A DNA stretch of 64,000 bases from Candidatus Omnitrophota bacterium (GCA_043814965.1 JBDRJN010000032.1:20126-84125); one strand, 5' to 3'. Positions 10,070 through 59,629 are shown, counted from the stretch's first letter. Numbers and translations are program-made. The notes: a model not told the origin generated them from the sequence alone.

Positions 10070-10178
10070 ATCGTACCTTTAGTATGTCTGACAGGCAATC
10101 TAAATTGTAATGCGGGAGAATAAGGTGCACAAAATAAAGATGCTTTTTTCAGGACTCCCGGCCTGTCAGAAATAATCA

Positions 10179-11252: not shown

Positions 11253-11253
11253 T

Positions 11254-15327: not shown

Positions 15328-18300
15328 GACTTTCTTCTATCTTTATGCCTTCAAGGATGCGTTTATATTCTATAGGTATGACTTTGACGAACTTTTTAAG
15401 TTCTTCGTGCATGGAATTTATTATTTTTTTTGCTTTATCGCTTTTTGTGTATTTAAAATGATTATGAAGGAGATGATAAACAGTATCCTTATCTTCATCT
15501 TTTACCTTTTCCAGCTCAACCATGTCTGTGTTGCATCTCTCTTTGAAATTCCCATCTTCGTCATATACATAAGCTATGCCGCCGGACATTCCTGCTGCAA
15601 AGTTTCTACCTGTCTTTCCAAGTATGATTATCCTTCCTCCTGTCATATATTCACAGCCATGGTCCCCTACGCCTTCTACTACAGCATAAAGACCTGAGTT
15701 TCTTATGCAGAATCTCTCTCCTGCCATTCCCCTGATATAGGCTTCTCCGGATATGGCCCCATAAAAAGTAGTGTTGCCTATGATAACATTCTCATCGCTT
15801 TCATATTGAGACCTTTTGTCCGGGTACACGATTATTTTCCCTCCTGAGATACCTTTTCCCACATAGTCATTCGTCATGCCCTCTAGTTCAAATGTAACTC
15901 CTTTTGCAAGAAATGCACCAAAACTTTGTCCAGCTATTCCCCTGAATTTACACACTACAGTATCTTCCAAGAGCACACCATCACCGCACCTCCTACAAAT
16001 CTCTCCGGAAAGCATCGCGCCTACGGCTCTGTTGGTATTATTTATCTCTGCCAAAATACTGACTGGTTCATTTTTTTCTAAAGAATCCTTGCATTTCCTG
16101 ATAAGTTCTCTATCTAGGGATGCTTCAAGCCCTATTTCTTGTCCAGGTTGATAGCGCCTCCCTATATATTCTGGAAGATCAGGCTTATAAAGGATCCTGG
16201 AATAATCTATTCCCTTTGCTTTCAAGGGCACAATATCTTTATTTACATCAAGAAGCTCTACTCTGCCTATCATCTCGTCTATAGTCCTTACGCCTAACCT
16301 TGCCATTGTCTCGCGAAGTTCCTGCGCTACAAAATTAAAATAGTTCACTATATATTCCGGCCTTCCCTTGAAATTTTTCTGTAAAATACTGTCCTGCGTA
16401 GCGACTCCTACTGAACAGTTGTTCAGATGGCAATGCCTCAGCATGACACATCCGCTTACAACAAGCACAGCAGTACAAAAACCATATTCCTCTGCTCCTA
16501 ATATTGCTGCGATCGCTACGTCCCGGCCTGTTCTTATCTGGCCGTCTGTCTGTATCCTGACCCTTGAACGCAAGTTATTAAGTACAAGTGTCTGGTGAGT
16601 TTCGGAAAGCCCCAATTCCCAAGGAAGCCCTGCGTATCTTATAGAACTTCTTGGAGATGCGCCTGTACCGCCGTCTCCACCTGATATAAGGATCATATCA
16701 GCATGGCCTTTTGCTACACCCGCCGCAACTGTCCCAACTCCTACTTCAGAGACAAGTTTTACGCTTATACGCGCTTTTGGATTTGCATTCTTCAGGTCAA
16801 ATATGAGCTGCGCAAGGTCTTCTATAGAATATATATCATGATGCGGCGGCGGAGAAATAAGAGTAACTCCAGGGGTTGTATACCTTGTTTGCGCGATAAC
16901 TTCACTTACTTTATGTCCTGGCAGCTGGCCGCCTTCCCCAGGCTTTGCGCCCTGCGCGATCTTTATCTGTATCTCATCTGCATTGACAAGATAGTTTATA
17001 GTGACCCCAAACCTTCCGGAGGCAACTTGCTTTATAGCGCTTCGCCTCGAGTCTCCGTTTGGTAAAGTTATAAACCTGTTGGGGTCTTCCCCTCCTTCAC
17101 CAGTATTGGATTTTCCTCCGATCCTATTCATGGCTATAGCGATCGTCTCATGCGCAGGCCTTGAGATAGAGCCAAAACTCATAGCCCCTGTTGCAAAGCG
17201 TCTCATTATGCTCTTTACTGGCTCGACTTCTTCGATAGGAACAGGACTTGTTTCCTTGAACTTCAATAAGCTTCTTAAGGTCGTAGGATTGTTTGATTGA
17301 TCGTTTATCATCCGCGCGAACTCTTTATATTTATTATAATCATTATTTCGCGTTGAATCCTGTAAGCTCGCTATAGTCTTAGGATTCCAGAGATGGAACT
17401 CCCCATCCTTTTTCCATTGATATACCCCTCCGCTTGTTAGGTAAGGGGTATCTACGCCTCTTTCAGAATAAGCGTGGTCATATCTTTTTATAGTCTCTTC
17501 TGCTATCCCTTCAAGCCCAACCCCTCCGATCCTAGAAACAGTGCCTGTAAAATATTTATCTATGATAGACTCGTTCAGGCCTAGGGCCTCGAATATCTGA
17601 GCGCCTCTATAACTTCTAAGAGTAGATATGCCCATCTTGGAAAGTATCTTTAATATGCCTTCTCTTATCGCCTTATTGTAATTCTTAAGGGCCTTTTGTA
17701 TATCCAAAGAAAGCTCTTTTTCTGTTATTAGATATTCTATTGCTTCATATGCAAGATACGGATTTACACAACCTGCGCCATAGCCAAAAAGCAAAGCAAA
17801 ATGGTGCACCTCTCTTGGTTCCGCGCTCTCGACTATTAGCGCAACCTGTGAGCGTATGGTCTGCCTCACTAGATGTTGGTGAACAGCGCTTGTAGCTAAA
17901 AGCGCTGGAAGAGCAATATTGTCTTTATCGCTCCCCCGGTCACTCAATATTATAAAAGAATAGCCTTTTTCAATAGCATATTCTGCCTCAAAACATATCC
18001 TTTCAAGCACCTTTACAAATCCTTCCTTACCGCTCTTTGCATCAAAAAAAGTATAGATAGTCTTTGTCTTAAAACCATTTATGCTGATATCGCGTATCTT
18101 CTCAAGCTCTCCATCGGTCAATATAGGATTTCTTACCCTGATCTTATGGCTATGCTCTGGGGTTTCTTCTAAGATGTTTTTCTCCGGGCCTATAAAGCTC
18201 TCCAGGCTCATGACAAGTTTTTCTCTTATAGAATCTATGGCTGGATTTGTCACTTGCGCAAACAGCTGTTTAAAATAATTATAGAGCATCTGCGGTTGTT

Positions 18301-19840
18301 CTGACAAAAAGGCATGAGGAGTGTCATTGCCCATACTACCTACGGGCTCTTTGCCATCCTCTGCCATAGGCTTTAATATCAACTTAAGGTCTTCTCTGGA
18401 ATAACCAAATGCCTTGAGACTGCGGATTATGTCCTCGGATCTTTGTTTGTTAGTCCCGCTAGCCATAAGTTTATCAAGGTCTACCATGCTCTTGGTGTTC
18501 CATTCACCGTATGGACATTGTAAAGACACCCTCTTTTTTATTTCAGGATCATGTACTATAGAACCTAATTCAGTATCTATAAAAAATATCTTTCCTGGTT
18601 CCAGCCTCCCTGAAACCTTGATATCCGAAGGGTCTATGCCAAGAACCCCTACCTCTGATGCCATAACTACAAAATCATTTTTAGTCACTATATAGCGCGC
18701 AGGGCGCAGGCCATTTCTGTCCAAGACAGCTCCTATATTCTTTCCATCCGTAAATGCTATCGCAGCTGGCCCATCCCAGGGTTCTGCAAAACATGCATGA
18801 TATGTATAAAAATCCTTGAGTTCTTTTGTCATAAGGTTGTTATGCTCCCAGGCTTCAGGGATAAGCATCATCATAGAACTTTCAAGAGACCTGCCTGAAA
18901 GGACCAGAAGTTCAAAAAAATTATCTATTGCGGCAGAATCGCTTCCGCCTTCAACAATAACTGGTTTTATCTTTTCTATGTCTGTAGCGAATAAACCGCT
19001 TGCAAGCAACCGTTCTCTTGCGCTTACCCAATTGATATTGCCTCTTATAGTATTTATCTCTCCATTATGGGCTAAAAATCTAAAAGGCTGCGCCAGGTCC
19101 CAGGTAGGAAAAGTATTAGTGCTGTAACGTGAATGCACCAGGCATAAGGCGCTCTTTATATTTTTATCCTTGAGGTCCAGGAAAAAATTCTCAAGCTGGG
19201 TAGGCATAAGCAGCCCCTTATAAGAAAATGTACGGCTGGATATATTGGTAATATAGAAAGCTCTCTTTTCCTCTAAGCTGGAGTTACGAATAGCATTATC
19301 AACTTGTTTTCTTATTAGATACAGCCTTCTCTCAAAGCTTAATGCATCCTCTTTGGTCATGATCTTTTTATTGCTTCCTATAAATATCTGTTCAAATACC
19401 GGCTGAGCGTCTCTTGCAGTCTTGCCGATATCAGAATTGTCTATAGGTACTGTACGCCACCCCAATAAAACCTGGCCTTCTTCTTTTATGATATTCTCGA
19501 AAACCTCCTTACAGAATTTTCGCTCTTTATCTTTCTGTGGCAAAAATATTAGGCCAGTTCCATATGAACCCTCTAGCGGTAGATCAATCTTGGCTTCTTT
19601 CGCTGCCCTTATAAAAAACTCATGAGGTATTTGTATTAATATACCGGCGCCATCGCCTGTTTTTGGATCTGCCCCTACTGCCCCGCGATGAGACAACCGC
19701 CTTAATACCTCTATACCCTGCTTTACAATAGAATTCGATCTTTCTCCTTTAATATTGCAGACAAACCCCACCCCGCAGCTATCTTTTTCAAATTGCGGAT
19801 CATACAGTCCTTGTTTTTCTGAAAAATAAGGTTGCCTCAT
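15299..19840 (-). CDS. gltB: Glutamate synthase large subunit
   Basis: 1513 aa. N-terminal Cys amidotransferase (CGVGF), a central FMN domain, and a C-terminal GXXG repeat domain. Confidence 0.95.
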   Translation of the reverse strand: MRQPYFSEKQGLYDPQFEKDSCGVGFVCNIKGERSNSIVKQGIEVLRRLSHRGAVGADPKTGDGAGILIQIPHEFFIRAAKEAKIDLPLEGSYGTGLIFLPQKDKERKFCKEVFENIIKEEGQVLLGWRTVPIDNSDIGKTARDAQPVFEQIFIGSNKKIMTKEDALSFERRLYLIRKQVDNAIRNSSLEEKRAFYITNISSRTFSYKGLLMPTQLENFFLDLKDKNIKSALCLVHSRYSTNTFPTWDLAQPFRFLAHNGEINTIRGNINWVSARERLLASGLFATDIEKIKPVIVEGGSDSAAIDNFFELLVLSGRSLESSMMMLIPEAWEHNNLMTKELKDFYTYHACFAEPWDGPAAIAFTDGKNIGAVLDRNGLRPARYIVTKNDFVVMASEVGVLGIDPSDIKVSGRLEPGKIFFIDTELGSIVHDPEIKKRVSLQCPYGEWNTKSMVDLDKLMASGTNKQRSEDIIRSLKAFGYSREDLKLILKPMAEDGKEPVGSMGNDTPHAFLSEQPQMLYNYFKQLFAQVTNPAIDSIREKLVMSLESFIGPEKNILEETPEHSHKIRVRNPILTDGELEKIRDISINGFKTKTIYTFFDAKSGKEGFVKVLERICFEAEYAIEKGYSFIILSDRGSDKDNIALPALLATSAVHQHLVRQTIRSQVALIVESAEPREVHHFALLFGYGAGCVNPYLAYEAIEYLITEKELSLDIQKALKNYNKAIREGILKILSKMGISTLRSYRGAQIFEALGLNESIIDKYFTGTVSRIGGVGLEGIAEETIKRYDHAYSERGVDTPYLTSGGVYQWKKDGEFHLWNPKTIASLQDSTRNNDYNKYKEFARMINDQSNNPTTLRSLLKFKETSPVPIEEVEPVKSIMRRFATGAMSFGSISRPAHETIAIAMNRIGGKSNTGEGGEDPNRFITLPNGDSRRSAIKQVASGRFGVTINYLVNADEIQIKIAQGAKPGEGGQLPGHKVSEVIAQTRYTTPGVTLISPPPHHDIYSIEDLAQLIFDLKNANPKARISVKLVSEVGVGTVAAGVAKGHADMILISGGDGGTGASPRSSIRYAGLPWELGLSETHQTLVLNNLRSRVRIQTDGQIRTGRDVAIAAILGAEEYGFCTAVLVVSGCVMLRHCHLNNCSVGVATQDSILQKNFKGRPEYIVNYFNFVAQELRETMARLGVRTIDEMIGRVELLDVNKDIVPLKAKGIDYSRILYKPDLPEYIGRRYQPGQEIGLEASLDRELIRKCKDSLEKNEPVSILAEINNTNRAVGAMLSGEICRRCGDGVLLEDTVVCKFRGIAGQSFGAFLAKGVTFELEGMTNDYVGKGISGGKIIVYPDKRSQYESDENVIIGNTTFYGAISGEAYIRGMAGERFCIRNSGLYAVVEGVGDHGCEYMTGGRIIILGKTGRNFAAGMSGGIAYVYDEDGNFKERCNTDMVELEKVKDEDKDTVYHLLHNHFKYTKSDKAKKIINSMHEELKKFVKVIPIEYKRILEGIKIEESLDLTEEYDG

Positions 19841-20064
19841 ATCTTGAATTTCTCCGAATCTATACCCAATCTTCTAACTTTATTATAAAGGGTATTTCTA
19901 TGGATACCCAGCATTTTCGCTGCTATTATCTTGTTGCCAAAAGACCTCTTTAGCGCTTTTTCAATAAGCATCTTTTCCATGCCCCCTATTACAACCGAAT
20001 AGATATGGCCTTTATGGATCATTATGAAATCATCATCTATGTTATCAATATCTTTACTCATCAT
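19837..20064 (-). CDS. Small stand-alone Fis-type (NtrC C-terminal-like) HTH DNA-binding protein
   Basis: 75 aa. IEKALKRSFGNKIIAAKMLGIHRNTLYNKVRRLGI matches the Fis / NtrC HTH_8 signature. A 4-nt ATGA overlap with gltB indicates translational coupling. Confidence 0.65.
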   Translation of the reverse strand: MMSKDIDNIDDDFIMIHKGHIYSVVIGGMEKMLIEKALKRSFGNKIIAAKMLGIHRNTLYNKVRRLGIDSEKFKI

Positions 20065-20087
20065 TCCAGTGCTATTCTGCCTAAATC

Positions 20088-20141
20088 TTATGCAGTATTT
20101 TTTAAAAAATTTTAATCATTATTGCAGGGGAGGGGTATCCC
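20088..20141 (-). terminator. Rho-independent terminator downstream of glnA1
   Basis: Perfect 13-bp GC-rich stem (TTGCAGGGGAGGG / CCCTCCCCTGCAA, loop GTAT), followed on the minus strand by a U-rich tract. Confidence 0.55.
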
Positions 20142-20165
20142 TCCCCTGCAATATACTGATCTTGA

Positions 20166-21494
20166 TCAAAGGATCGATAGATATTTATCCAATTCGTACT
20201 GAGGTACCTGTATCCTGTAACTATCCCATTCCTTTTTCTTCAGCTCTATGAATCTCGGGAAAATATGTGCCCCAAGGGTCTTTTTAACTAATTCACTTCC
20301 TTCTGTAATATTAATAGCCTGGCCTAAGTTATCAGGTAAGGTCTCTATACCTTGCGCCTTTCTTTCATTGTCGCTTAGATGATATAGATTGCCTTCCATT
20401 GCACCAGGGCATTTATAGCCTTTCTCTATCCCCTCTAATCCTGCATGAAGCATTGCTGCAAATGTGAGATATGGGTTACATGCTGGGTCACATGCCCTGA
20501 ATTCACACCTTGTAGCCTTTTCCATACCAGGATGATATAAAGGGACTCTGACAAGGGCTGATCTATTTCTGCGAGACCACGCGACATATACAGGCGCTTC
20601 GTAACCAGGCACAAGTCTCTTGTAAGAATTTGTAGTTTGAGCAAATATAGAACAGATCTCTTTTGAATGTTTTAATAGGCCTGCTATGTATGAACGCGCT
20701 GTATCAGACAGGTTATCCTTTGTGCTTTTATCAAAAAATGCGTTCTTCTCACCTTTAAATAGTGACTGGTGAGTGTGCATACCTGAACCATTCTGTCCAA
20801 ATATAGGTTTAGGCATAAAAGTAGCGTACACCCCGAATTTGCTGGCGATCTCTTTTACTGCTATTCTATAGGTGATGACATTATCTGCCATCTTTAATGC
20901 GTCATCATATCTCATATCGACTTCATGTTGACTTGGCGCAACTTCATGATGAGAATACTCTATCTTGATGCCCATCTTCTCTAAAGCCAATACCGTCTCT
21001 CTTCTTAAGTCACTTGCTACATCCAAGGTCGTAAGGTCAAAATATCCACCTTTATCAAGTATCTCTGTGCCCTTATCATCCTTAAAATAGAAAAACTCCA
21101 GTTCCGGGCCTAGATAAAAATGATCGTATCCCATATCAGATGCTCTTTTTAGGGCCTTTTTCAAAACATACCTTGGGTCACCTTCATAAGGCTGTTTATC
21201 TGGTGTCAAAACATCACAGATCATTCTTGCGACAGCCTTTTCGCTCGGCCTCCATGGAAGCAGGCAAAAAGTGTCAGGATCAGGGAGAGCTATCATGTCG
21301 CTTTCTTCAATATCCTGGTATCCTGTGATAGATGAACCGTCGAATCCCATACCATTTTCCAAAGCGCCTTCCAGCTCAGAATCAGTTATAGAAAAACTCT
21401 TCACCTGGCCCAATAGATCCGTAAACCAAAGCCTGATGAATTTTACATCCTTTTCCTTAACAAGCTTTATTATATCCTTCTTTGTCATACCCAT
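20166..21494 (-). CDS. glnA: Glutamine synthetase type I. The probable start is MGMTKKDII.
   Basis: GS signatures: GFDGSSI, SHHEVAPSQHE, NGSGMHTHQS and NSYKRL, plus a candidate adenylylation Tyr (NLYHL). The track start at 21530 lies inside the leader hairpin. An AAAGGGG SD sequence precedes the ATG at ~21494. Confidence 0.9.
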   Translation of the reverse strand: MGMTKKDIIKLVKEKDVKFIRLWFTDLLGQVKSFSITDSELEGALENGMGFDGSSITGYQDIEESDMIALPDPDTFCLLPWRPSEKAVARMICDVLTPDKQPYEGDPRYVLKKALKRASDMGYDHFYLGPELEFFYFKDDKGTEILDKGGYFDLTTLDVASDLRRETVLALEKMGIKIEYSHHEVAPSQHEVDMRYDDALKMADNVITYRIAVKEIASKFGVYATFMPKPIFGQNGSGMHTHQSLFKGEKNAFFDKSTKDNLSDTARSYIAGLLKHSKEICSIFAQTTNSYKRLVPGYEAPVYVAWSRRNRSALVRVPLYHPGMEKATRCEFRACDPACNPYLTFAAMLHAGLEGIEKGYKCPGAMEGNLYHLSDNERKAQGIETLPDNLGQAINITEGSELVKKTLGAHIFPRFIELKKKEWDSYRIQVPQYELDKYLSIL

Positions 21495-21527
21495 TTTTAC
21501 CCCTTTCTCGGTTTTTTGCCTCGTATT

Positions 21528-21676
21528 CATTAAGTAGAAAAGACGTTCCTATAGCGCTTGTCCTAGCTATAAGAACGTCTTTGTTCTATCTGGGTGATTA
21601 ACACAAACTTTGTGCTTATCTACCTATACTGGTAGCCTTCATATATACAAGTAAAAAAAGAGTGCTTTTGGTAACT
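21528..21676 (-). promoter_or_regulatory. Conserved nitrogen-regulon leader module, copy E1. Upstream of glnA1.
   Basis: On the gene strand the module contains, in order: AGTTACCAA, then 12 nt, then TTTTTACTTGTATA. Next come the palindrome GCACAAAGTTTGTGT and the hairpin AGAAC-AAAGAC-GTTCT. A 9-bp stem follows (AAGACGTTC...GAACGTCTT, enclosing TATAGC...GCTATA) with UUUUCUACUU after it, ~35 nt before the ATG. Confidence 0.55.
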
Positions 21677-21760
21677 TATTTTTTATCTAAAAGAGTCTAA
21701 AAGTAGACGTTCTATCCGAGTACACCCTACAGCACAATGATTAACGAATTAATATAACTA

Positions 21761-22102
21761 TTATCCTATTGCCTCACCGCCTCTTTCTCCTGTGCGGATC
21801 CTGATGCATTCATTGAGATCATATACAGCTATTTTCCCGTCGCCAATATTGCCAGTCCTAGCTCCTTTGATAACCGCACTTATAGTAGGCTCGACGAAAT
21901 CATCATTTACAAGTATCTCCAGCTTGATCTTGGGAATCAGGTTTACCTTATAGATCTTTCCTCTGTAAGATTCAGTATAACCTCTTTGCTGACCGCAGCC
22001 TTTTACTCTGCTTACTGTCATCTTAAATACCTCGGCCTTGAATAGTTCAGCTTTAACCGCATCCAGTTTTTCTGGCTGTATGATCGCTTCTATTTTTTTC
22101 AT
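21761..22102 (-). CDS. glnB: Nitrogen regulatory protein P-II
   Basis: 113 aa with a T-loop ([12 protein letters not shown]) and the GlnB signature. Confidence 0.9.
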
Positions 22103-22115
22103 TTACTGCCTCCTA

Positions 22116-23351
22116 TTATAAAGACTCCTCAGGATATGCCTCTATCTTGTGAATAGACAGATCCGCTCCTATTAATTCAGAGTGTTCATCAAGTCTTATA
22201 CCAAAAGTCTTCTTAAGTATAAAATAAACCAGGCTTCCGCCTATAAGCGCAAACACGATTGCAGCCAGTGACCCTATCAGCTGCGCTGATAAACTCACGC
22301 CTCCGAGCCCTCCGAGTATCTTCTTGCCGAAAATACCGCAAGCAACTCCACCCCAAGTTCCAGCAACTCCGTGAAGAGGCCAGACCCCCAATACATCATC
22401 TATTTTCAATTTCTCAGTCTCTGTCTGAAAAAGTACTACAAATATCACAGCAGCTACTGCTCCTGTAACTAGCGCGCCCATTGGATGCATCACATCCGAA
22501 CCAGAACAAATAGCTATCAGTCCTGCAAGCGCTCCATTATGTATGAACGTAACGTCGTTCTTAGACACGATCAAAGCTGCTATTATCCCTCCTACCATAG
22601 CCATAAGCGAATTGATAGCTACCAATCCGGAAATATTCTCTAATCTTCCTGCGCTCATCACGTTAAAGCCGAACCATCCTATACAAAGCAGCCAACTTCC
22701 AAGAGCCAGAAAAGGTATATTGCTGACTTTTATAGGCTGCGACTCGCCATTTTCATATCTCTTAAGGCGAGAACCCAATATTATGATAGCAGGCAGCGCC
22801 AACCATCCTCCCATAGAATGAACAACTACAGAGCCAGCATAGTCATGAAATGGTATACCCCCTGTAAAATTAGCCAGCCACGAACCAGCCTGGCCCAAAA
22901 GCAGATTTTTACCCCACACCAATGATTCGAAAAACGGATAGACCGACCCTACAAAGATCCCTCCTGCCAGAGCCTGGGTCCAAAACTTGGCCCTTTCAGC
23001 TATCCCTCCTGAAATAATAGCAGGGATGCACGCTGCAAAAGTCAAAAGAAAGAAAAAGTGCACTATATCAAAACCCTGGTTGGGGCCTAATAATTCAGAT
23101 GCTGGCTTCAAAAAACTTATCCCATAGGCGATCGGAAAGCCTATGATAAAATATATGACCGTGGAAAACGCCCAGTCAGTGATTATCTTCACCAATGCAT
23201 TCACCTGGTTCTTTTTCCTCACTGACCCTACTTCCAAAAAAGCAAAACCCGCGTGCATAGAGAAAACAAACATCGCTCCCAAAAGTAAAAATAAGATATT
23301 ACTGCTGGCAAGCAACTTTTCAAGGCTTATCGACAACATCTGCATATTCAT
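22116..23351 (-). CDS. amt: Ammonium transporter
   Basis: 411 aa Amt/MEP family protein with multiple TM helices. It lies immediately upstream of glnB. Confidence 0.9.
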   Translation of the reverse strand: MNMQMLSISLEKLLASSNILFLLLGAMFVFSMHAGFAFLEVGSVRKKNQVNALVKIITDWAFSTVIYFIIGFPIAYGISFLKPASELLGPNQGFDIVHFFFLLTFAACIPAIISGGIAERAKFWTQALAGGIFVGSVYPFFESLVWGKNLLLGQAGSWLANFTGGIPFHDYAGSVVVHSMGGWLALPAIIILGSRLKRYENGESQPIKVSNIPFLALGSWLLCIGWFGFNVMSAGRLENISGLVAINSLMAMVGGIIAALIVSKNDVTFIHNGALAGLIAICSGSDVMHPMGALVTGAVAAVIFVVLFQTETEKLKIDDVLGVWPLHGVAGTWGGVACGIFGKKILGGLGGVSLSAQLIGSLAAIVFALIGGSLVYFILKKTFGIRLDEHSELIGADLSIHKIEAYPEESL

Positions 23352-23357
23352 GCCTCC

Positions 23358-23497
23358 TTTTTACTAAAACAAAAGAGGCGTCCCTATAATTTTTTACAAC
23401 AATAAGAACGCCTTCGTTCTATTAGCCTTTACACAAACATTGTGCTTAGATACCTAATTACTTATATAAGTAAAAATAGAGGTAGCTTGGTAACTTA
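23358..23497 (-). promoter_or_regulatory. Conserved nitrogen-regulon leader module, copy E2. Upstream of amt1-glnB1.
   Basis: Blocks on the gene strand: AGTTACCAA, then 12 nt, then TTTTTACTTATATA. Next come the palindrome AGCACAATGTTTGTGT and the hairpin AGAACG-AAGG-CGTTCT. A stem AGGCGT...ACGCCT is followed by CUUUUGUUUU ahead of the start. Confidence 0.55.
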
Positions 23498-23591
23498 GGC
23501 CAAATCTTAATTGATAATTTATTGTTTAATCTTATATACCTGCGTAAAAGCATTATTCTAAGCTAGCCGGAAAATAGCTGATTAGAAAAAA

Positions 23592-23803
23592 GATAAAAGG
23601 AATTCTGTAAGCGAATTTGAAAATTTAACCTTTTATGAAGCGTTTTGGCGGTTTTTAAAAGGCTCGAAACTATCCGAAGCCAGCACGCCAGATTTTGTGC
23701 TGGCAAGTTTTTCGAGCCCCGACAAAATGCGTAATAAAAGGTGTCCCAAAGTAAATTCTATAAGTGGGAAATTTTCACCTGAGCGAACGGAATTCCTTTT
23801 ATC
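23592..23803. repeat. 212-bp element bounded by a perfect 14-bp inverted repeat (GATAAAAGGAATTC / GAATTCCTTTTATC). It encloses a nested GC-rich hairpin.
   Basis: The inverted repeat and the inner hairpin (GGCTCGAAA..GCCAGCAC..GTGCTGGC..TTTCGAGCC, 23661-23718) were read directly from the sequence. On the minus strand the outer stem is followed by UUUUUU. No ORF lies inside; the + ORF 23697..24038 is spurious. Confidence 0.5.
23648..23718 (-). terminator. Terminator-like nested hairpin downstream of glnK2
   Basis: A 9-bp outer stem and an 8-bp inner stem, followed by UUUUAAAAACC on the minus strand. Confidence 0.45.
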
Positions 23804-23830
23804 TTTAAACAAATTACTAACTATAACTTG

Positions 23831-24172
23831 TTACCCTATTGCCTTTCCTCCAGTTTCCCCTGTACGGATCCTTATACATTCAGGAAGGTCCAGCACAAAT
23901 ATCTTCCCATCTCCTATATTGCCCGTCTTGGCGCCTTTTATGATAGCATCAATAGTAGGCTTAACAAAATCCTCATTTACCGCTATCTCCAACCTTACCT
24001 TTTTAAGAAGATTTACATCATGTATAACTCCTCTATAGGTTTCTGTAAAGCCTTTTTGCTGTCCGCAGCCAAGCACATTAGAGACTGTCATCTTGTAAAC
24101 CTGCGCATCGTAAAGCGCTTTTTTAACATCAGGTAATTTATGCGGTTGTACCATTGCTATTATTAACTTCAT
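23831..24172 (-). CDS. glnK: P-II protein, GlnK-type, amt-linked
   Basis: 113 aa paralogous to the glnB at 21761. It lies immediately downstream of the second amt. Confidence 0.9.
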
Positions 24173-24256
24173 ATTACACCTCCGAAATTTTGCGAAGCAA
24201 AATTAAGCCCCGAGCAGCAACAGTCAATAACTATGCCGCGAGGGACAAGTTATGCT

Positions 24257-25513
24257 TTATTGGGTAGTAAAGATCTCGAATCCAGCGTATGATTCCATGC
24301 CATGCTCTCCTATATCTAGGCCTTTCAGTTCCTCTTCTTTTGAAACTCTTAGCCCTACTGTCTTATCTATTAATTTAAAAATAATGCTCATTGATGCGAC
24401 AATAAAAAGCGCTACTGATAGAACCCCCAGAGCCTGTATCCCAAGCTGAGTAAAGCCTCCTCCATAAAAAAGTCCGTTATTCGCAAGGCCAAGCGCTTTC
24501 TGGCCGAACAATCCTATAGAAAGAGTGCCCCATATACCATTTATGCCGTGTACAGGAAAAGCTCCCACGGGGTCATCTATGTGAAGTTTGTCCAATATAA
24601 CCACTGCCAATACTACTATAAACCCACCTATCATACCTATAATAATAGCTGCCCATGGCTCTACATATGCGCAAGGAGCAGTTATCGCTACGAGCCCTGC
24701 CAATGCTCCGTTCATTGCCATAGAGAGATCTGGTTTTCCAAATATCTTCCACACAGCAGCCATGGCTGTAAGACATCCTAAAGCTGCGGCGAGATTAGTA
24801 TTAATAGCTATTCTTGATATTAAATCTCCGTTTCCCACCCCAAGCGTAGAACCCGGGTTAAACCCAAACCACCCAAACCACAGTATAAATACCCCTAAAG
24901 AAGCCAGAGGTATTGAATGTCCTGCTATAGCATTTGCGGAACCATCAGCATTATATTTTCCTGTCCTTGGCTTTAACATTATAGTGCCTACCAGGGCTGC
25001 TACACCTCCTACTAGATGTACTACAGTAGAACCTGCAAAATCAGAAAACCCCAGCTTAGCCAGCCATCCTCCGCCCCATATCCAATGGCCTACGACCGGA
25101 TATATAAAAGCGGATATCAGAAAGGAATATACCAAGTATGCCTGAAACTTCATGCGTTCAGCCATGCCTCCCGCAACAATCGTTGCTGCTGCGCCGCAAA
25201 ATGCTGCCTGGAATAGCCAAAAAGCATATAAAGGTACGCCTGCGCCTGATTCAGCGCCATTCAAAAACCAGCCTTTTAATCCAATAAAACTATTTCCTGC
25301 GCCAAACATTATTGCATAGCCAAATACGAAAAATCCTAAAGACGCCATACAAAAATCCAGGAAATTCTTGGTCAATATGTTACATGTGTTTTTTGCCCTT
25401 ATGAATCCAGCTTCTACCATACCAAATCCAGCTTGCATAAAAAACACTAAAAATGCTGCCAACAATACCCATACAGTATCAAGCCCTGCCCTTAGATCAA
25501 CTAAAGTTTCCAT
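24257..25513 (-). CDS. amt: Ammonium transporter, second copy
   Basis: 418 aa Amt family protein. Confidence 0.9.
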   Translation of the reverse strand: METLVDLRAGLDTVWVLLAAFLVFFMQAGFGMVEAGFIRAKNTCNILTKNFLDFCMASLGFFVFGYAIMFGAGNSFIGLKGWFLNGAESGAGVPLYAFWLFQAAFCGAAATIVAGGMAERMKFQAYLVYSFLISAFIYPVVGHWIWGGGWLAKLGFSDFAGSTVVHLVGGVAALVGTIMLKPRTGKYNADGSANAIAGHSIPLASLGVFILWFGWFGFNPGSTLGVGNGDLISRIAINTNLAAALGCLTAMAAVWKIFGKPDLSMAMNGALAGLVAITAPCAYVEPWAAIIIGMIGGFIVVLAVVILDKLHIDDPVGAFPVHGINGIWGTLSIGLFGQKALGLANNGLFYGGGFTQLGIQALGVLSVALFIVASMSIIFKLIDKTVGLRVSKEEELKGLDIGEHGMESYAGFEIFTTQ

Positions 25514-25524
25514 AATCCCCTCCT

Positions 25525-26289
25525 TTATAAGCTAAAAGCTACTGTCACTCCTCCATAAAATTCGTTATCGTAATTGCCGTCATCTGCGTCCTTAAGGTCT
25601 CCGAAAGGCATGTCATAATTTATAACAGGCGATATTGAACAGATATCTGTTAATTTGATAGTAAGCCCTGCTCCAAGATTAACATGCCCTCCTTCTCCTT
25701 TAATAAACAACTCCTTGTTGTACCCAACTCCTCCTGATAAGTCCAAGGTTACTGGAGAATCTCCTACAGGCTCAGAATGGCTAAGACTAAGATAAACATA
25801 ATCTCCGCTTCCTCCTCCTGAGTCTTCTTCTCCAAAATCATGATAAAACGTTATAGAAGGAGAAAGTAATGTATCCAAGCTTGTTCCTATAAACCATTCC
25901 CTGCTGGCTCCGTCTGCTGCCGGAAAATCATAATACGTAAAACCTCCTGAGAGCGACACTGGGGTTCCAGGGATAGGATAACTATAACTTATAGAATAAT
26001 CCACCTCTTCGGAAGATGTCAAAGAATCATCCGAATCTATATCAGCGCTTCCCCAAATGCTTGTCTCAAAATCATAACCACTAACATAGACTCCTGGCTG
26101 AACCACTGGATCGCCATCAAGTTTTATACCTCTCCATATGTATTTCGAGAAAAAGCCAATATCCGAAAAAACGCTGATATCATGCCCTTCTAACAAAGGC
26201 TTTGTGTCTTCTGCAAAAACTCTCCTGGCCGTGAAACTGACCGAAAAACAAATCATTAATATCAATAATCCTTTTATAAGCTTCATCAT
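25525..26289 (-). CDS. Small outer-membrane beta-barrel, porin-like protein. It heads the amt2-glnK2 operon.
   Basis: The likely true start is MMKLIKGLLILMICFSVSFTA (signal peptide), with a GGGGAAGGGA SD just upstream. The track start at 26361 would run through the terminator hairpin. The protein has alternating beta-strand patterns, acidic loops and a C-terminal ...VTVAFSL. Confidence 0.5.
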   Translation of the reverse strand: MMKLIKGLLILMICFSVSFTARRVFAEDTKPLLEGHDISVFSDIGFFSKYIWRGIKLDGDPVVQPGVYVSGYDFETSIWGSADIDSDDSLTSSEEVDYSISYSYPIPGTPVSLSGGFTYYDFPAADGASREWFIGTSLDTLLSPSITFYHDFGEEDSGGGSGDYVYLSLSHSEPVGDSPVTLDLSGGVGYNKELFIKGEGGHVNLGAGLTIKLTDICSISPVINYDMPFGDLKDADDGNYDNEFYGGVTVAFSL

Positions 26290-26304
26290 TCCCTTCCCCT
26301 TTTT

Positions 26305-26415
26305 TGTAAAAGTTAAAAAATAAAACAGGCGTTCTTTATAAGAACGCCTTCGTATCAACACAACTATGTGTCTTTATCTGCTTATACAAGTAAGAATTTG
26401 ATTACTTTGGTAACT
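26305..26415 (-). promoter_or_regulatory. Conserved nitrogen-regulon leader module, copy E3. Upstream of porin-amt2-glnK2.
   Basis: Blocks on the gene strand: AGTTACCAA, then 12 nt, then TTCTTACTTGTATA. Next come the palindrome ACACATAGTTGTGT and ACGAAGGCGTTCTTAT, which forms the 5' arm of a strong terminator (GGCGTTCTT-ATA-AAGAACGCC plus UGUUUUAUUUUUU). The start follows ~35 nt later. Confidence 0.55.
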
Positions 26416-26472
26416 CCGTATCAAACTTTAACATAATTTAATTCTGGGACTTGGTATTGAGCAGATCACTTT

Positions 26473-26988
26473 TTAATCAAACTTCCTATGCCATTTTTTT
26501 ATTATGTTCTTCTTATGCTTTAGGATCATGACATGGGATATATTCATCTCTTTTGCAGCTTCCCGAACTGTATATCCCTTAAGGAGATACGAGAGTACGG
26601 TCTTTTCGCTATCCGTCAAGCCTATGCCCTTCAATTCATCAACCGTAAGCCTGCGCTCCATGCTATCCGGAAAGCTTTCCTTTTTGTCTTCAAGGATATC
26701 GCCTAACGTCAGGTCTGTTGAAGGAATGATTTCATTGAGACTTGTTAATAATGCCTTTGGCCTTCCTTTTCTTAAAAAATTTTGAATATGGAACTCGCAC
26801 CCTTTGATAATATAACTCTCATTCTTATCGATCGGGGCCCCATACTTATAATTCTCTAGTAAATACAGGCACATCTCCTGATAAAGGTCATCTTCGCTAT
26901 AGAATCCTTTTAAGATATGCCTTCTAGCAATAAGCTTAAGCGTAGGAGTTATTTTTTCAAGTAGTATCCTAAAATCCATAAGTATCAC
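26473..26988 (-). CDS. ECF-type sigma-70 family factor
   Basis: 171 aa with a region-2-like segment (DDLYQEMCLYLLENY) and a region-4 HTH (LTDSEKTVLSYLLKGYTVREAAKEMNIS). An AGGTGA SD precedes the internal ATG (MDFRILL) at ~26979. Confidence 0.6.
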   Translation of the reverse strand: MILMDFRILLEKITPTLKLIARRHILKGFYSEDDLYQEMCLYLLENYKYGAPIDKNESYIIKGCEFHIQNFLRKGRPKALLTSLNEIIPSTDLTLGDILEDKKESFPDSMERRLTVDELKGIGLTDSEKTVLSYLLKGYTVREAAKEMNISHVMILKHKKNIIKKWHRKFD

Positions 26989-26995
26989 CTATTGA

Positions 26996-27045
26996 CTAAA
27001 AATAAAAAAGTCCTTTCCAGTAGAACTCTCTACCAAAAAGGACTT
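26996..27045 (-). terminator. Intrinsic terminator immediately upstream of the ECF sigma gene
   Basis: 9-bp stem (AAGTCCTTT...AAAGGACTT) with an inner hairpin, followed on the minus strand by UUUUUAUUUUUAG. Confidence 0.5.
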
Positions 27046-27054
27046 CATTGTCCT

Positions 27055-27087
27055 ATAAATATAAAAAGCGTTCCTTTCCTGGAACGC
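27055..27087 (-). terminator. Second tandem terminator in the spacer between the 266-aa gene and the ECF sigma gene
   Basis: GCGTTCC-AGGAAA-GGAACGC hairpin followed by UUUUUAUAUUUAU on the minus strand. Confidence 0.5.
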
Positions 27088-27250
27088 CTCATCGCCTTTA
27101 TATTGAGCACTATCTTTGTACTCAATATAAGTTTACCATCTTATGGGTGTACTGTCAATAGCCTTTTTTCTACTAGGGTTTTTCGCTGAGAAATCCAAGC
27201 GTCTTTTTGAGGCCCATCTCACAAAAAAAGCGAAGATCGTTTATAGCTTA

Positions 27251-28051
27251 TTATTCTCCGCTGAATGGAAGGAGTTTTTTGATAGTATCTCGTGCCTTCT
27301 TTGTAGCATCTTCTGCAGTATCTTTAAGTTTTCCTCCTGCGCCAAGCGCTGCACCTTTGGTATCTTTTACCAGGCCCGATGTAATACCAAACGCATCACT
27401 AAGGCCTTCTTTTAAAAGCCCTGATTCAAAATCTGTAAGGCTTGATATAGTTGTATTCATAAGCGCGTTCATTACTATAATATTCGTAAGGGCTTTAGGG
27501 TCAGTGATATTTCGATACGTAGCGTCTATATTGACCTTGAATTCTCTGGATTTTCCTTCCGGACCTTGCGTATAATCCTTATATACGACCTTGCCTATCT
27601 TAAGTTTTAATAAATCTATCTTTAGGTCTACTGCTCTCTTCTCTTCTTTTGTCCCGGTAGATGCTCCTTCTTTTTTCAGTGTCTTTAATGAATCTATATT
27701 AAGCTTGCCTGCGCTATTTTTTACAACAATAAGTTCTTTTAAATATAATCTTACTTCTTCTAGATGCACTTTTCCCTTTAAAAGGCCTTCTAAGTCATAG
27801 TCTACGTATATCTCTGGAAGATCAGCCATAAGCCTTTCTTTAAAACTATCTGGATTAAGCATCCTCAATTCTTTTATATCCACAAATGAATTGAATATCC
27901 CGACTTTAAAACTACCTACTTCCATCTTGAGTCCCGTTACAGCTCTTATAGCCATTGATACAGAGTTCTTTATTATAATGTCCTTTTCTAAAAAAAGTAT
28001 ACCCAAAGCAAGGGTTAAAATAATGATAATAATAAAAATTATCTTTTTCAT
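27251..28051 (-). CDS. Hypothetical membrane-anchored periplasmic protein
   Basis: 266 aa with an N-terminal TM (IIFIIIIILTLALGILFL), followed by a Lys-rich soluble domain. I recognise no family. Confidence 0.45.
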   Translation of the reverse strand: MKKIIFIIIIILTLALGILFLEKDIIIKNSVSMAIRAVTGLKMEVGSFKVGIFNSFVDIKELRMLNPDSFKERLMADLPEIYVDYDLEGLLKGKVHLEEVRLYLKELIVVKNSAGKLNIDSLKTLKKEGASTGTKEEKRAVDLKIDLLKLKIGKVVYKDYTQGPEGKSREFKVNIDATYRNITDPKALTNIIVMNALMNTTISSLTDFESGLLKEGLSDAFGITSGLVKDTKGAALGAGGKLKDTAEDATKKARDTIKKLLPFSGE

Positions 28052-28060
28052 ATTAAACTC

Positions 28061-28786
28061 CTATTCTGACGATCTTATAATAAGTGAATAGCCAAGGACT
28101 CCTGGATTCTGTATTAGAAGTGGGGTCCTTTTTTTATCATCAGCTAGATATAATTTAAAATGAGGCGGGTCGCTTATAAAAGCATGCGCTGCATATTTTC
28201 CCATCGGAGTCTCGATAGCCTCTTTTCCTTTATAGCTAACGATAAAATCAAGCGTCGGAAGAGATATATGAAACTTCTCTTTTTCTTTGAAATCAGCCTT
28301 TGCCCTGCAAAAATAAACTAGAAGTATCGCATTGTGGATCGGCGAATCTTTCTTTATAGAAGACTTTTTTGTCCTGAGGTTGCTTTTTGAGGTTATATCA
28401 ACTCTAAAATCTTTCTGGTCATAGGTCTCTATTATAGAATCATTGAACCCTATCTTTTTTTTGACCATGCGCCTTACTTCTTTTGGAAGGAATGTCCTCA
28501 TATCTCCGAATATCTCTTCTGTATCTTTAAATGAAGCTGCTTTCGTAAAAAATGTGACATGATATAACTTTTCGCCTCGTAATTCTTCTTCGCCGCGAAA
28601 ATCCAGTATAGCCTCTCCTATCCTAAGGCCTTTATACTTCACATCATATGTTAAGCGTTCATTTTTTTCAAAAGGTAAAGGCGTATTATACTCGATGCCT
28701 AAAACACTCTCTGAGGCGTGGTTATCGGATATAAAGACAGTCAGGCAAGATACTGCCATCATAAAGATCAAAGATATATTTTTCAT
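28061..28786 (-). CDS. Hypothetical secreted protein
   Basis: 241 aa with a signal peptide (MKNISLIFMMAVSCLTVFISDNHA). I recognise no family. Confidence 0.45.
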   Translation of the reverse strand: MKNISLIFMMAVSCLTVFISDNHASESVLGIEYNTPLPFEKNERLTYDVKYKGLRIGEAILDFRGEEELRGEKLYHVTFFTKAASFKDTEEIFGDMRTFLPKEVRRMVKKKIGFNDSIIETYDQKDFRVDITSKSNLRTKKSSIKKDSPIHNAILLVYFCRAKADFKEKEKFHISLPTLDFIVSYKGKEAIETPMGKYAAHAFISDPPHFKLYLADDKKRTPLLIQNPGVLGYSLIIRSSE

Positions 28787-28796
28787 GATTTTTAGG

Positions 28797-30131
28797 CTAT
28801 AGGATCGGCAAATATTTATCTATCTCATATTTAGAGACCTGGGCCTTGTATTCATCCCATTCTAGATATTTATTCCTTATAAAATATCCAAAGACCTTGT
28901 CCCCCAAAGCCTCTTTTAAAAGAGAGCTCTTTTCAGCAAGCTTTATTGCTTCATATAGGTCTTCCGGCAGAGAATTGATGGTTGCTTTTTCCCTATCCTT
29001 TTCCGTCATCTTATAGATGTTGTCTTCTGCAGGCTCTACGAGTTTATATTTCTTCTTTATACCTTCCAGGCCTGCCCTAAGCATCACTGAAAATGCCAGG
29101 TAGGGATTGCAGGCTGGATCAGGAGACCTGACCTCGATCCTTGTCGCGTGTTCTTTGCCAGGTTTATACATAGGGACCCTTACAAGAGCGGATCTATTCA
29201 TCTGTGCCCAACAGATGTAAACAGGCGCCTCATAACCCGGTATAAGCCTCTTATATGAATTGACCCACTGGTTTGTAACAACCGTGATCTCCGGGACATG
29301 TTTCAATATACCTGCTATAAAATATTTTGCTGTGTCTGACAGATGCCTTTTATCGGTCTTACTGAAAAATGCGTTCTTCTTGCCTTTAAAAAGAGACTGG
29401 TGCACATGCATGCCGCTTCCATTTATGCCATGTATTGGTTTTGGCATAAAAGTAGCATACACACCGTTCTGCCTGGCAACCTCTTTTACTACCATGCGGT
29501 ATGTCATGACATTGTCAGCCATCATAAGCGCGTCATTATATCTAAGGTCTATCTCATGCTGGGAACTAGCTACTTCATGATGAGAATATTCTACCTGGAC
29601 CCCCATCTTTTCCAGATTTATGACTGTCTGTCTTCTGAAATCCTGCGCAACATCCAAAGGCGTCAAATCGAAATATCCTCCTCTATCGAGTATTATTGTA
29701 TTATTAGGGTTATTAAAATAAAAATACTCCAGTTCCGGGCCTACATAATAATTGGTAAAGCCCATGTCTTTTGCAAGCTTGATGTTCCTCTTTAATACAA
29801 ATCTTGGATCTCCCTCAAAAGGTTTTCCGTTAGGCTGTAATATATCGCAGAACATCCTTGCAGAAAGCCCTTCTTTCTTCTTTCTCCATGGAATAAGCTG
29901 GAACGTAGAGATATCAGGAAAAGCTACCATATCACTCTCTTCGATGCGGGCAAATCCTTCAATGGATGAACCGTCAAAACCCATACCTTCTGACAATGCC
30001 TTATCAAGCTCATTTCTTGTGATAGTGACTCCTTTTTGAAAACCCAATACATCAGTAAACCAGAGCTTGATAAATTTAATGTTATGTTTTTTTACTAACC
30101 TTAAAACGTCTTTTTTGGTTTTAATTAACAT
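28797..30131 (-). CDS. glnA: Glutamine synthetase type I, second copy
   Basis: 444 aa with the same GS signature blocks as the copy at 20166 (GFDGSSI, SHHEVASSQHE, NGSGMHVHQS, NSYKRL). Its start overlaps the queF stop. Confidence 0.9.
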   Translation of the reverse strand: MLIKTKKDVLRLVKKHNIKFIKLWFTDVLGFQKGVTITRNELDKALSEGMGFDGSSIEGFARIEESDMVAFPDISTFQLIPWRKKKEGLSARMFCDILQPNGKPFEGDPRFVLKRNIKLAKDMGFTNYYVGPELEYFYFNNPNNTIILDRGGYFDLTPLDVAQDFRRQTVINLEKMGVQVEYSHHEVASSQHEIDLRYNDALMMADNVMTYRMVVKEVARQNGVYATFMPKPIHGINGSGMHVHQSLFKGKKNAFFSKTDKRHLSDTAKYFIAGILKHVPEITVVTNQWVNSYKRLIPGYEAPVYICWAQMNRSALVRVPMYKPGKEHATRIEVRSPDPACNPYLAFSVMLRAGLEGIKKKYKLVEPAEDNIYKMTEKDREKATINSLPEDLYEAIKLAEKSSLLKEALGDKVFGYFIRNKYLEWDEYKAQVSKYEIDKYLPIL

Positions 30132-30529
30132 ACTTTGCTCCCTTTGAATTCAGAACTTATAGTTGTTGTTATCCCCCCGCGAGTGTTAAATACTCCTTTG
30201 ATATATGCCCATCTTGGTTTGCAGGCCTTTACAAAATCATCTAAAATCTTATTTACCGCATGTTCGTGAAAAATACCTATATCCCTATAACTTACCAGGT
30301 ACATCTTTAAGCTCTTTAGCTCTACACATAGCTCATCAGGCCTATACTGGAGCATCAGGTTAGCAAAGTCAGGTAAGCCCGTCTTTGGGCATACACATGT
30401 AAATTCTGGATGTTCTAGATCTATCAAATAATCCTTATCAGAGTACTCATTGCGCCAGGTATCTATCTTTGGCATCTTGAGGCAGCGTACGTCTTTTTGT
30501 AGATCTCTGTAGGAATTTTTACTTGGCAT
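30125..30529 (-). CDS. queF: NADPH-dependent 7-cyano-7-deazaguanine (preQ0) reductase, type I (YkvM-like)
   Basis: 134 aa with the QueF motifs EFTCVCPKTGLPDF (catalytic Cys), ELKSLKMYL and the C-terminal NTRGG. Confidence 0.85.
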   Translation of the reverse strand: MPSKNSYRDLQKDVRCLKMPKIDTWRNEYSDKDYLIDLEHPEFTCVCPKTGLPDFANLMLQYRPDELCVELKSLKMYLVSYRDIGIFHEHAVNKILDDFVKACKPRWAYIKGVFNTRGGITTTISSEFKGSKVC

Positions 30530-30539
30530 AATATTTTTA

Positions 30540-31265
30540 TTACTTCATCTCATGCGTCATTACTATGGCTTCAGCGACATCCTTCATAGGCTTACGCCTA
30601 TCCATGCTGAACTTTTGTATCTTTCTAAAGGCATCTTCTTCTGTGAGACCTTCTTCTTTCATCAAGATACCTTTTGCTTTTTCTACTACTTTTCTTGTCT
30701 CGAGTTCTTCCTGTATAACACGCGTCTTTACCATAAGCTCTGTATTTTCTATAGCGATAGCTGCTTGATTTGCAACGCTTGTGAGGACGCTTATCTCTGT
30801 TTTTGAAAATTTATGCGGCTTTGAAGTGTAACAGTTTAAAGCTCCTATAACCTTATTTTTTACAGCTAAAGGCACGCACAAAAGTGAGGCAAGGCCTTCT
30901 TTTTGGGCAATATTTTTGTATTTGTATTCGGGATCCTTTAAAATATCCTCGACTACCAAAGGCTTATTAGCTGCGACTACTTTCCAGACCAAGCCCTCGC
31001 CTTTTTTTAGAGGGTCCTTACCTATATATTCTTCACTAATGCTTTGGGTTGCCCTTATAGAAAGATGTTCTTTTTTTTCATCCAAGAGCATAAGCGTACA
31101 GATCCTTGAATTCATGACTTCTGCTGTGACTGTTACGATAAGTTTGAGTATATCTTCTAGATAAAGATCGCTCGATATGGCTCTAGAGATCTTGGAAAGC
31201 GCTTCTATGGTATCAGCTGCTTTTGTATTCGTATTGGATCTTACTGCCTTATTTTTCTTTTTCAT
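30540..31265 (-). CDS. GAF-ANTAR domain RNA-binding antitermination regulator
   Basis: 241 aa. The N-terminal GAF domain is followed by a C-terminal ANTAR domain (ELETRKVVEKAKGILMKEEGLTEEDAFRKIQKFSMDRRKPMKDVAEAIV). It has a 4-nt overlap with lpxI. Confidence 0.8.
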   Translation of the reverse strand: MKKKNKAVRSNTNTKAADTIEALSKISRAISSDLYLEDILKLIVTVTAEVMNSRICTLMLLDEKKEHLSIRATQSISEEYIGKDPLKKGEGLVWKVVAANKPLVVEDILKDPEYKYKNIAQKEGLASLLCVPLAVKNKVIGALNCYTSKPHKFSKTEISVLTSVANQAAIAIENTELMVKTRVIQEELETRKVVEKAKGILMKEEGLTEEDAFRKIQKFSMDRRKPMKDVAEAIVMTHEMK

Positions 31266-34158: not shown

Positions 34159-34241
34159 AAGGCCTTTCTCTTGACTTATTATAATGCAGATTTTATCTAC
34201 ACTATAGGCTAAAGATCCGGCACCTCTCGGTATCAGTATCT

Positions 34242-58819: not shown

Positions 58820-58871
58820 AGGTCAGAACATTATAACAAGGACCAATTTCATTTTCAAGCAAAATTTTCTC

Positions 58872-58899
58872 TTGACGATAAAATGCAATGTGTTATAAT
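58872..58899 (+). promoter_or_regulatory. Sigma-70 promoter for rpmH-rnpA-yidD-yidC
   Basis: TTGACG, a 16-nt spacer, then TATAAT. An AGGAGA SD follows, then a GTG start. Confidence 0.5.
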
Positions 58900-58924
58900 A
58901 GCTCCCTTACAAGGAGAGATAATC

Positions 58925-59062
58925 GTGAAGAAAAATCTTACCCGAAAAAGCAATTTAAAGCGTAAACGCAAACATGGTTTTAGGCGTAGAATGCGTAGCG
59001 CCAAGGGGCGTAACATCTTGAAGCGCAGACGAAGAAAAGGCAAGGCTAGGCTTACTGTTTGA
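58925..59062 (+). CDS. rpmH: Ribosomal protein L34
   Basis: 45 aa (VKKNLTRKSNLKRKRKHGFRRRMRSAKGRNILKRRRRKGKARLTV), embedded in the longer track ORF 58646..59062. Confidence 0.85.
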   Translation: MKKNLTRKSNLKRKRKHGFRRRMRSAKGRNILKRRRRKGKARLTV

Positions 59063-59611: not shown

Positions 59612-59629
59612 AGTAAAGAAAGGGAGATA

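Follow-up and report, generated by a model that had tools for sequence, protein, structure and literature searches.

The unusually long spacer between glnK2 and amt1 of an uncultured Candidatus Omnitrophota bacterium contains a 218-bp palindrome that is real, lies far from chance expectation and is absent from the equivalent spacer of six related lineages. Our tentative reading is a MITE-like palindromic insertion, specific to this lineage, with a core that would terminate amt2-glnK2 transcription. The options raised in the original prediction, namely an elaborate terminator, a small structured RNA or a MITE-like insertion, were reasonable ones, and the element belongs with known palindromic intergenic elements and terminators, being nothing categorically new.

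A 218-bp palindrome in the glnK2-amt1 spacer

The window, i.e. the whole 64-kb stretch of DNA that was analysed, encodes an Amt1 protein 100% identical to NCBI entry MFH1479497.1, the next-best relatives being 81-83% identical. The minus strand carries nearly all genes from 1 to ~59 kb, and this gene run points away from the dnaA-dnaN-gyrB-gyrA block at 51-59 kb. Between 51081 and 63111, gyrA, gyrB, dnaN and dnaA (minus strand) face yidC, parA and parB (plus strand), with a strand switch near 58820-59630, where the chromosomal replication origin is probably located, ~35 kb from the palindrome. The palindrome itself is situated in a nitrogen-assimilation cluster of the minus strand, the gene order of which is given in Table 1. 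The glnA2 and glnA1 genes share 70% nucleotide identity over 264 nt, and the presence of two glnA genes and two amt-glnK pairs points to the nitrogen module having been duplicated in tandem long ago.

The spacer had been reported to be ~480 bp long and far longer than others in the window, and both statements hold. It measures 479 bp to the first ATG of amt1 and 485 bp to the ATG of the 409-aa NCBI model; the only larger gap in a crude ORF tiling, 467 bp (10070-10536), is artefactual since the tiling skipped carA at 10179-11303. The ATG at 23345 is a more likely amt1 start than that at 23351, because the Shine-Dalgarno sequence AAGGAGG (23359-23353) is just 1 nt away from the upstream ATG and because the protein modelled by NCBI has 409 aa. 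Along the gene strand, the spacer consists of 24 nt following the glnK2 stop codon, the 218-bp element and then ~237 nt that hold a promoter-like motif and a leader. The 24 nt are homologous to the first nucleotides following the glnK1 stop codon. The paralogous spacer, between glnK1 and glnA1, has a length of 228 bp and does not carry the element. When the element is subtracted from the glnK2-amt1 spacer, 261 bp are left (479 - 218), close to a normal spacer, as expected for an ordinary one enlarged by 218 bp. Start signals proper to amt1 thus follow the element, which therefore lies between transcription units and not in a 5' untranslated region.

The element had been described as 212 bp bounded by a perfect 14-bp inverted repeat. 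This repeat was recovered, GATAAAAGGAATTC at 23592-23605 having its exact reverse complement at 23790-23803, and 0.10 matches to the 14-mer with at most one mismatch would be expected by chance in the window. Both the repeat and the 212-bp span are genuine, but the true limits are wider: the perfect repeat is 17 bp long (AAAGATAAAAGGAATTC) and the element 218 bp. The terminal arms extend to 38 nt with 82% complementarity, and no other local inverted repeat of the window is as long as the terminal and inner arm pairs. The other terminator-like local repeats of the window are simple hairpins with 13-21-nt arms. At the centre, the nested hairpin was found as announced, with an outer stem formed by GGCTCGAAA and TTTCGAGCC around an inner stem (Table 1).

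The predicted folding energy was -78.2 kcal/mol (z -7.9) for the minus-strand RNA, -89.2 kcal/mol (z -9.8) for the plus-strand RNA and -55.6 kcal/mol (z -9.0) for the plus strand as single-stranded DNA, and none of 200 shuffles matched the fold of the element in any of these three tests. On either strand, 72-76 pairs form across the whole element. The plus-strand RNA fold is better by 11 kcal/mol and includes 4 G-U pairs versus 1 in the minus-strand fold. The G+C content of the element is 38%, versus 40% for the window. An assembly artefact was rejected in view of the imperfect arms and of the location inside a long contig.

Table 1. Position of the palindrome, its parts and the surrounding features. 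Coordinates refer to the window unless a related locus (L001 to L044) is named.
Feature	Position	Strand	Remark
Whole palindromic element, 218 bp	23589-23806		End-to-end rod-like hairpin, either strand
Left terminal inverted repeat AAAGATAAAAGGAATTC, perfect 17 bp	23589-23605		Imperfect arm continues to 23626
Right terminal inverted repeat GAATTCCTTTTATCTTT, perfect 17 bp	23790-23806		Imperfect arm reaches back to 23769
Left inner arm, 24 nt, 83% complementary	23628-23651		Pairs with 23719-23742
Right inner arm	23719-23742		Pairs with 23628-23651
Side-branch hairpin TCCCA...TGGGA	23744-23769		No left-half counterpart; main asymmetry of the palindrome
Nested hairpin, outer stem	23661-23669 / 23710-23718		
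Nested hairpin, inner stem	23679-23687 / 23696-23704		
Gene-strand terminator-like core	23657-23718	-	Nested hairpin 23718 to 23661, UUUU 23660 to 23657, then AAAAA
Plus-strand terminator-like site	23679-23714	+	Inner hairpin and tail
59-codon ORF, TTG start	23633-23812	-	Crosses the element
amt1 promoter-like motif and attenuator leader (module E2)	23371-23494	-	Downstream of the element, outside it
Further module copies	~21540-21680; ~26320-26425	-	
Module copies in relatives	L001 3840-3960; L043 2330-2480		
GAF-ANTAR protein	30540-31265	-	Nitrogen cluster; also L001 2289-3005, L040 80-781
glnA2	28797-30131	-	Nitrogen cluster
Two proteins, role unknown	27251-28786	-	Nitrogen cluster
GerE-type small protein	26473-26988	-	Nitrogen cluster, conserved cluster head; also L003 539-1051, L001 3243-3833
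Gcw_chp protein	25525-26361	-	Nitrogen cluster
amt2	24257-25513	-	Nitrogen cluster
glnK2, P-II protein, 113 aa	23831-24172	-	Stop codon 24 nt upstream of the element (gene strand)
glnK2-amt1 spacer	23352-23830		Holds the palindrome and the amt1 leader
amt1, ammonium transporter	22116-23351	-	Start probably ATG 23345
glnK1	21761-22102	-	Nitrogen cluster
glnA1	20166-21530	-	Nitrogen cluster
Glutamate synthase, large and small subunits	13861-19840	-	Nitrogen cluster
58-aa helix-turn-helix-like ORF of relatives	L003 3701-3877; L004 2480-2656; L043 2112-2288; L044 14-190		No Pfam family recorded

Terminator-like signals and the amt1 leader

On the gene strand, the nested hairpin and the adjoining U-tract form a terminator-like core. 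The hairpin (9-bp outer stem plus inner stem, 58 nt) has a predicted energy of -30.1 kcal/mol (z -5.2) and begins ~110 nt past the glnK2 stop codon. Six U residues had been reported after the outer stem on this strand; this proved incorrect, as the sequence reads UUUUAAAAA / UUUUAAAAACC, with four U. These four U followed by A5 make a weak tract for an intrinsic terminator, and the minus-strand core was not called in a terminator scan requiring at least 5 T in 8. A run of five U (AAGUUUUUCG) is found after the inner stem on the plus strand, where the inner hairpin GCCAGCACG/TGTGCTGGC with its tail AAGTTTTTCG has 9 pairs, 6 of them G-C, and an energy of -16.2 kcal/mol. This hairpin tops the list of terminator-like sites from the 15000-34900 scan and has the most G-C pairs.

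Like Rho-independent terminators, including REP/BIME-type 3' stabilisers, the minus-strand core combines a stable G+C-rich hairpin with a U run downstream of a gene, between its stop codon and the next promoter, and the element has a second terminator-like signal on the opposite strand. Unlike them, the core has a nested hairpin of 58 nt with a U-tract of only 4 nt, and it is set in ~160 nt of extra self-complementary sequence that termination does not need. The elaborate terminator that had been proposed is supported in part: the strong core hairpin and the UUUU are well placed, but termination alone leaves the 218-bp palindrome unexplained because a transcript ending at the core would lack the 3' side of each outer stem. 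As the ordinary terminators of the window are simple hairpins, the element would also be exceptional as a terminator.

The element had also been said to have no coding capacity, which needs some qualification. A 59-codon ORF with a TTG start does cross it, but no Shine-Dalgarno-like sequence was seen and the ORF is Pfam-negative. Not one of 5.8 billion predicted proteins has a 5-residue word in common with it, and no candidate copy of its 59-aa translation was found among the called ORFs of the same set. The ORFs in the element have only 59, 47 and 29 codons, all with TTG starts, the protein searches having covered the 59-codon one.

Downstream of the element, the amt1 leader comprises, in this order, GTTACCAA (23494 to 23487), TTACTTATATAAG, a hairpin CACAAtgtTTGTG, a hairpin AGAAC-GAAGGC-GTTCT and a terminator AGGCGT...ACGCCT with its T-run. 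A shared module, GTTACCAA-N13/14-TTTTTACTTGTATA followed by the small hairpin CACAAnnnTTGTG, precedes amt1, glnA1 and Gcw_chp/amt2, and in relatives it was likewise seen beside GAF-ANTAR genes. In both the amt1 and glnA1 leaders, an AGAAC-hexaloop-GTTCT hairpin has its 3' arm overlapping the 5' arm of a terminator with a T-run (AGGCGT...ACGCCT for amt1 and AGACGT...ACGTCT for glnA1). The Gcw_chp/amt2 leader is without the AGAAC...GTTCT hairpin and has a compact AGGCGTTCTT-ATA-AAGAACGCCT terminator directly after the small hairpin. A sigma-54 promoter was considered for the leader motif AAGCAC-N5-TTGT and rejected, the GG and GC dinucleotides not being kept.

This organisation looks like an antitermination control of the nitrogen genes. 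ANTAR proteins are known to stabilise antiterminators composed of two hairpins, the formation of which excludes a terminator (PMC3369931, PMC8934654). Compared with the dual-hexaloop ANTAR target (PMC3369931, PMC8934654), the leaders described here fit only partly, one loop being a hexaloop (AAAGAC or GAAGGC) and the other a pentaloop. A GAF-ANTAR gene is present in the nitrogen cluster of the window and directly adjoins amt in two relatives, making its product the obvious candidate antiterminator for the nitrogen leaders.

Searches for related elements and copies

The amt loci of six Omnitrophota lineages (L001-L006 and L039-L044) were compared with the window. Neither the element nor a comparable long hairpin was present in the equivalent spacer of any of these six lineages, so that the element is specific to the source lineage; since the nearest relatives share only ~82% Amt identity, its absence does not date the element and tells little as to recent insertion versus fast turnover. 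The amt-glnK-amt-glnK-glnA order is kept in two lineages (L003/L004/L005 and L043/L044), whose glnK-amt spacers of 322 and 390 bp hold no trace of the element. In both, a conserved 58-aa helix-turn-helix-like ORF (MEDKELIKKLPAFKKGRNFTFYELSKMLDVQIPTIERWFKTQRINRVYAQMIRERLSI) lies exactly at the spot of the palindrome, and no remnant of this ORF was detected in the window by tblastn. The remaining related loci have short spacers with a promoter and terminator module only. It should be noted that one of them, L001, carries at 2998-3095 two adjoining near-perfect palindromes built on CTAACTTGACAAA, just past its GAF-ANTAR gene, that have a REP-like look.

Regarding known RNA families, a scan of the whole window with Rfam 15 at the gathering threshold returned only 2 tRNAs. 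A clear Rfam hit, which the original prediction had named as another possible explanation, was not obtained even at E <= 10 for region 23300-23900, where the best match scored 19.6 bits against thresholds of 43-100; a known family is thereby excluded as far as Rfam 15 is concerned. Two other classes were rejected: a retron ncRNA (msr-msd), the neighbours being glnK2 and amt1 and no reverse transcriptase being encoded in the window, and an integron attC site, as inspection by eye showed ends without GTTRRRY/RYYYAAC core sites.

Elsewhere in the window, blastn-short and nhmmer searches with the element recovered only chance words of 9-12 nt, and a scan for the 17-mer that tolerated as many as 3 mismatches revealed no extra site beyond chance, so that the 64 kb contain one copy. 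Beyond the window, the terminal-repeat pattern AAAAGGAATTC-N169-199-GAATTCCTTTT, which demands 11 + 11 exact bases and thus misses diverged copies, matched 14 loci in 185,579 GTDB species genomes, all chance hits alike in the fixed bases only, and 16 loci in JGI metagenome contigs, again with likeness restricted to the fixed bases. Shorter cores (AAAGGAATTC-N165-195-GAATTCCTTT) matched two chance loci in IMG/VR, neither of which folds as strongly as the element. Blastn with word size 11 against PLSDB plasmids and INPHARED phages yielded only chance matches of 25-37 nt (E ~1). The counts for GTDB, JGI, IMG/VR, PLSDB and INPHARED refer to collections that lack the source MAG, its own locus not having been returned. 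In the data searched, the element remains an orphan with no family, second copy or conservation, and as such an unproven curiosity. Some pattern hits are rod-like themselves (L036 and L025) with sequences unrelated to the element. L036 (JGI contig Ga0364867_10175) has at 13950-14154 a perfect ~55-bp inverted repeat around ~95 nt, with a folding energy of -95 kcal/mol, which could represent either another kind of foldback element or an artefact of the assembly.

Origin and function of the palindrome

Bacterial MITEs are short, non-coding and A+T-rich, with terminal inverted repeats, a TA inside the termini and a stem-loop transcript paired from 5' to 3' end; MITE and palindromic repeat families measure roughly 100-200 bp, up to a few hundred (PMC2229807). 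Here again the element is short, non-coding, A+T-rich and intergenic, like MITEs and the Correia/NEMIS, ERIC/IRU, RUP and RPE repeats (PMC2229807), and it shares with MITEs the terminal inverted repeats, the TA inside the termini, the long end-paired stem-loop and a position downstream of a gene, where such repeats affect mRNA 3' ends (PMC2229807). By contrast, its 218 bp are at or slightly over the ~100-200 bp of such families, it resembles none of these families in sequence, plasmid and phage records and the pattern scans having yielded nothing, and no second copy, partner insertion sequence or transposase was seen in the 64-kb window, which likewise encodes no integrase, invertase or reverse transcriptase. 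The MITE option of the original prediction is thus backed by the short non-coding sequence, the 17-bp ends, the end-to-end pairing and the absence from syntenic relatives, but not by multiple copies. A TA is present inside each perfect repeat (23594-95 and 23800-01), and excision would restore the palindromic AAAGA-TA-TCTTT, the predicted empty site being ...GTTTAAAGA-TA-TCTTTTTTC...; this arrangement is indistinguishable from chance, as is the alternative duplication AAA at both ends (23586-88 and 23807-09). No convincing target-site duplication was recognised at the flanks of the element and no empty site among the relatives compared.

What argues for a mobile origin is the outer part of the palindrome. 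The perfect 17-bp ends and ~45 further bp would not be kept by termination because the outer 3' halves are untranscribed if the polymerase stops. The outer arms are easier to understand as features of the DNA, where they would form the terminal repeats and the foldback body of a mobile element that is small and non-autonomous. A 218-bp non-coding imperfect palindrome of the MITE or foldback type would thus have entered the glnK2-amt1 spacer by insertion, and its central nested hairpin with UUUU would serve as, or reinforce, a Rho-independent terminator for the Gcw_chp-amt2-glnK2 transcript. RNA polymerase would be released upstream of the amt1 promoter and attenuator leader, and the amt1-glnK1 unit would thereby be insulated from read-through. 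Read-through RNA, or plus-strand antisense RNA, could form a ~75-bp rod closed by a 17-20-bp perfect helix, which might be cleaved; RNase III cleaves such duplexes in Correia-type elements.

The palindrome could instead be a complex terminator or insulator that evolved locally, e.g. by template switching or inverted duplication around a terminator, and that ends both amt2-glnK2 transcription and antisense transcription on the opposite strand, with no mobile past and no other role. We consider this somewhat unlikely. It agrees with the presence of signals on both strands (P5/P6 with U4 on the minus strand, P6 with U5 on the plus strand), with the absence of mobile-element genes from the 64 kb, with the lack of a clear target-site duplication and with an element that is single-copy in everything searchable. 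That a single copy with no conservation would be just a long terminator, as had been proposed, fits the searched data, which exclude the source genome. Yet the outer ~45 bp would be missing from the terminated RNA, selection for termination could not maintain the perfect 17-bp repeat, the other terminators of the window are short and simple hairpins, and well-delimited perfect ends are typical of transposition rather than of local drift. Still less probable, in our opinion, is a novel structured RNA that belongs to the nitrogen cluster. It could be a cis-antisense sRNA from the plus strand, ~125 nt long with its end at the inner hairpin and U5, or an RNA derived from the glnK2 3' untranslated region and ending at the core hairpin. 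In a further variant, the full rod in read-through mRNA would be processed by RNase III, whereby the two amt-glnK units would be uncoupled. The location inside a tightly regulated nitrogen-assimilation cluster, the very stable fold (z down to -9.8), the plus-strand hairpin at the head of the terminator-like list and the mild preference for the plus strand (11 kcal/mol, G-U 4 versus 1) would suit such an RNA, but the 4:1 G-U bias is not significant and no consensus sigma-70 promoter was found upstream on the plus strand, whose transcript would run head-on into a long co-directional gene block near oriC. Moreover, no Rfam match was obtained even at E <= 10, no homologue was found from which covariation could be read, and the element is missing in syntenic relatives. 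Narrower still is the proposal of a functional RNA device, as opposed to inert inserted DNA, in which the ~75-bp duplex, formed by read-through glnK2-amt1 RNA or by a plus-strand antisense RNA that ends at the inner hairpin and U5, would be processed, e.g. by RNase III, to uncouple or tune the two amt-glnK units; we give it a low probability.

Two other rivals rest on resemblance to known systems. The 17-bp repeats might be recombination sites at which a site-specific invertase turns the 184-bp interior around, thereby altering the gene-strand sequence upstream of amt1. As in invertons, perfect inverted repeats of ~17 bp flank ~180 bp (here ~184 bp) in an intergenic position just upstream of a regulated gene, a size and layout that resemble known invertible promoters. 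Unlike in invertons, the interior is palindromic, so that inversion would change little and leave a terminator-like hairpin on the gene strand either way; it holds no promoter-like site, and no recombinase or invertase gene occurs in the 64-kb window. This reading is very unlikely. The element could also be a divergent 6S-like RNA or another known rod-shaped regulatory RNA missed by the Rfam models, its length of ~200 nt and its rod with internal loops being reminiscent of 6S RNA. We find this barely credible: no 6S or other match appeared at E <= 10 with relaxed filters, a large central bubble open on both sides is missing, as is an identifiable promoter, the element is not conserved in relatives, and its location between glnK and amt would be atypical.

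Should further copies be found in the source genome, the MITE-like insertion favoured above would, as far as we could establish, give Omnitrophota their first described MITE-type repeat, nothing on such repeats in this group having come up in a search of the literature, and it would provide an example of a MITE-type element supplying the terminator between two nitrogen-assimilation operons. A single-copy element would be just a terminator region that is unusually elaborate, and its interest would be local only. Neither outcome would open a long-standing question. The RNA device, if real, would be a new lineage-specific riboregulator in Omnitrophota, a phylum in which we know of no described sRNAs.

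The promoter/attenuator module is probably a more informative regulatory feature of the spacer than the palindrome. Together with the GAF-ANTAR gene, it suggests how an uncultured lineage controls amt, glnK and glnA, and constitutes the more useful by-product of this analysis. In addition, a small protein of 170-196 aa resembling GerE or sigma-70 region 4 is kept at the head of the amt-glnK cluster, and this GerE-like protein might recognise the unusual GTTACCA...TTTACTTGTA motif.
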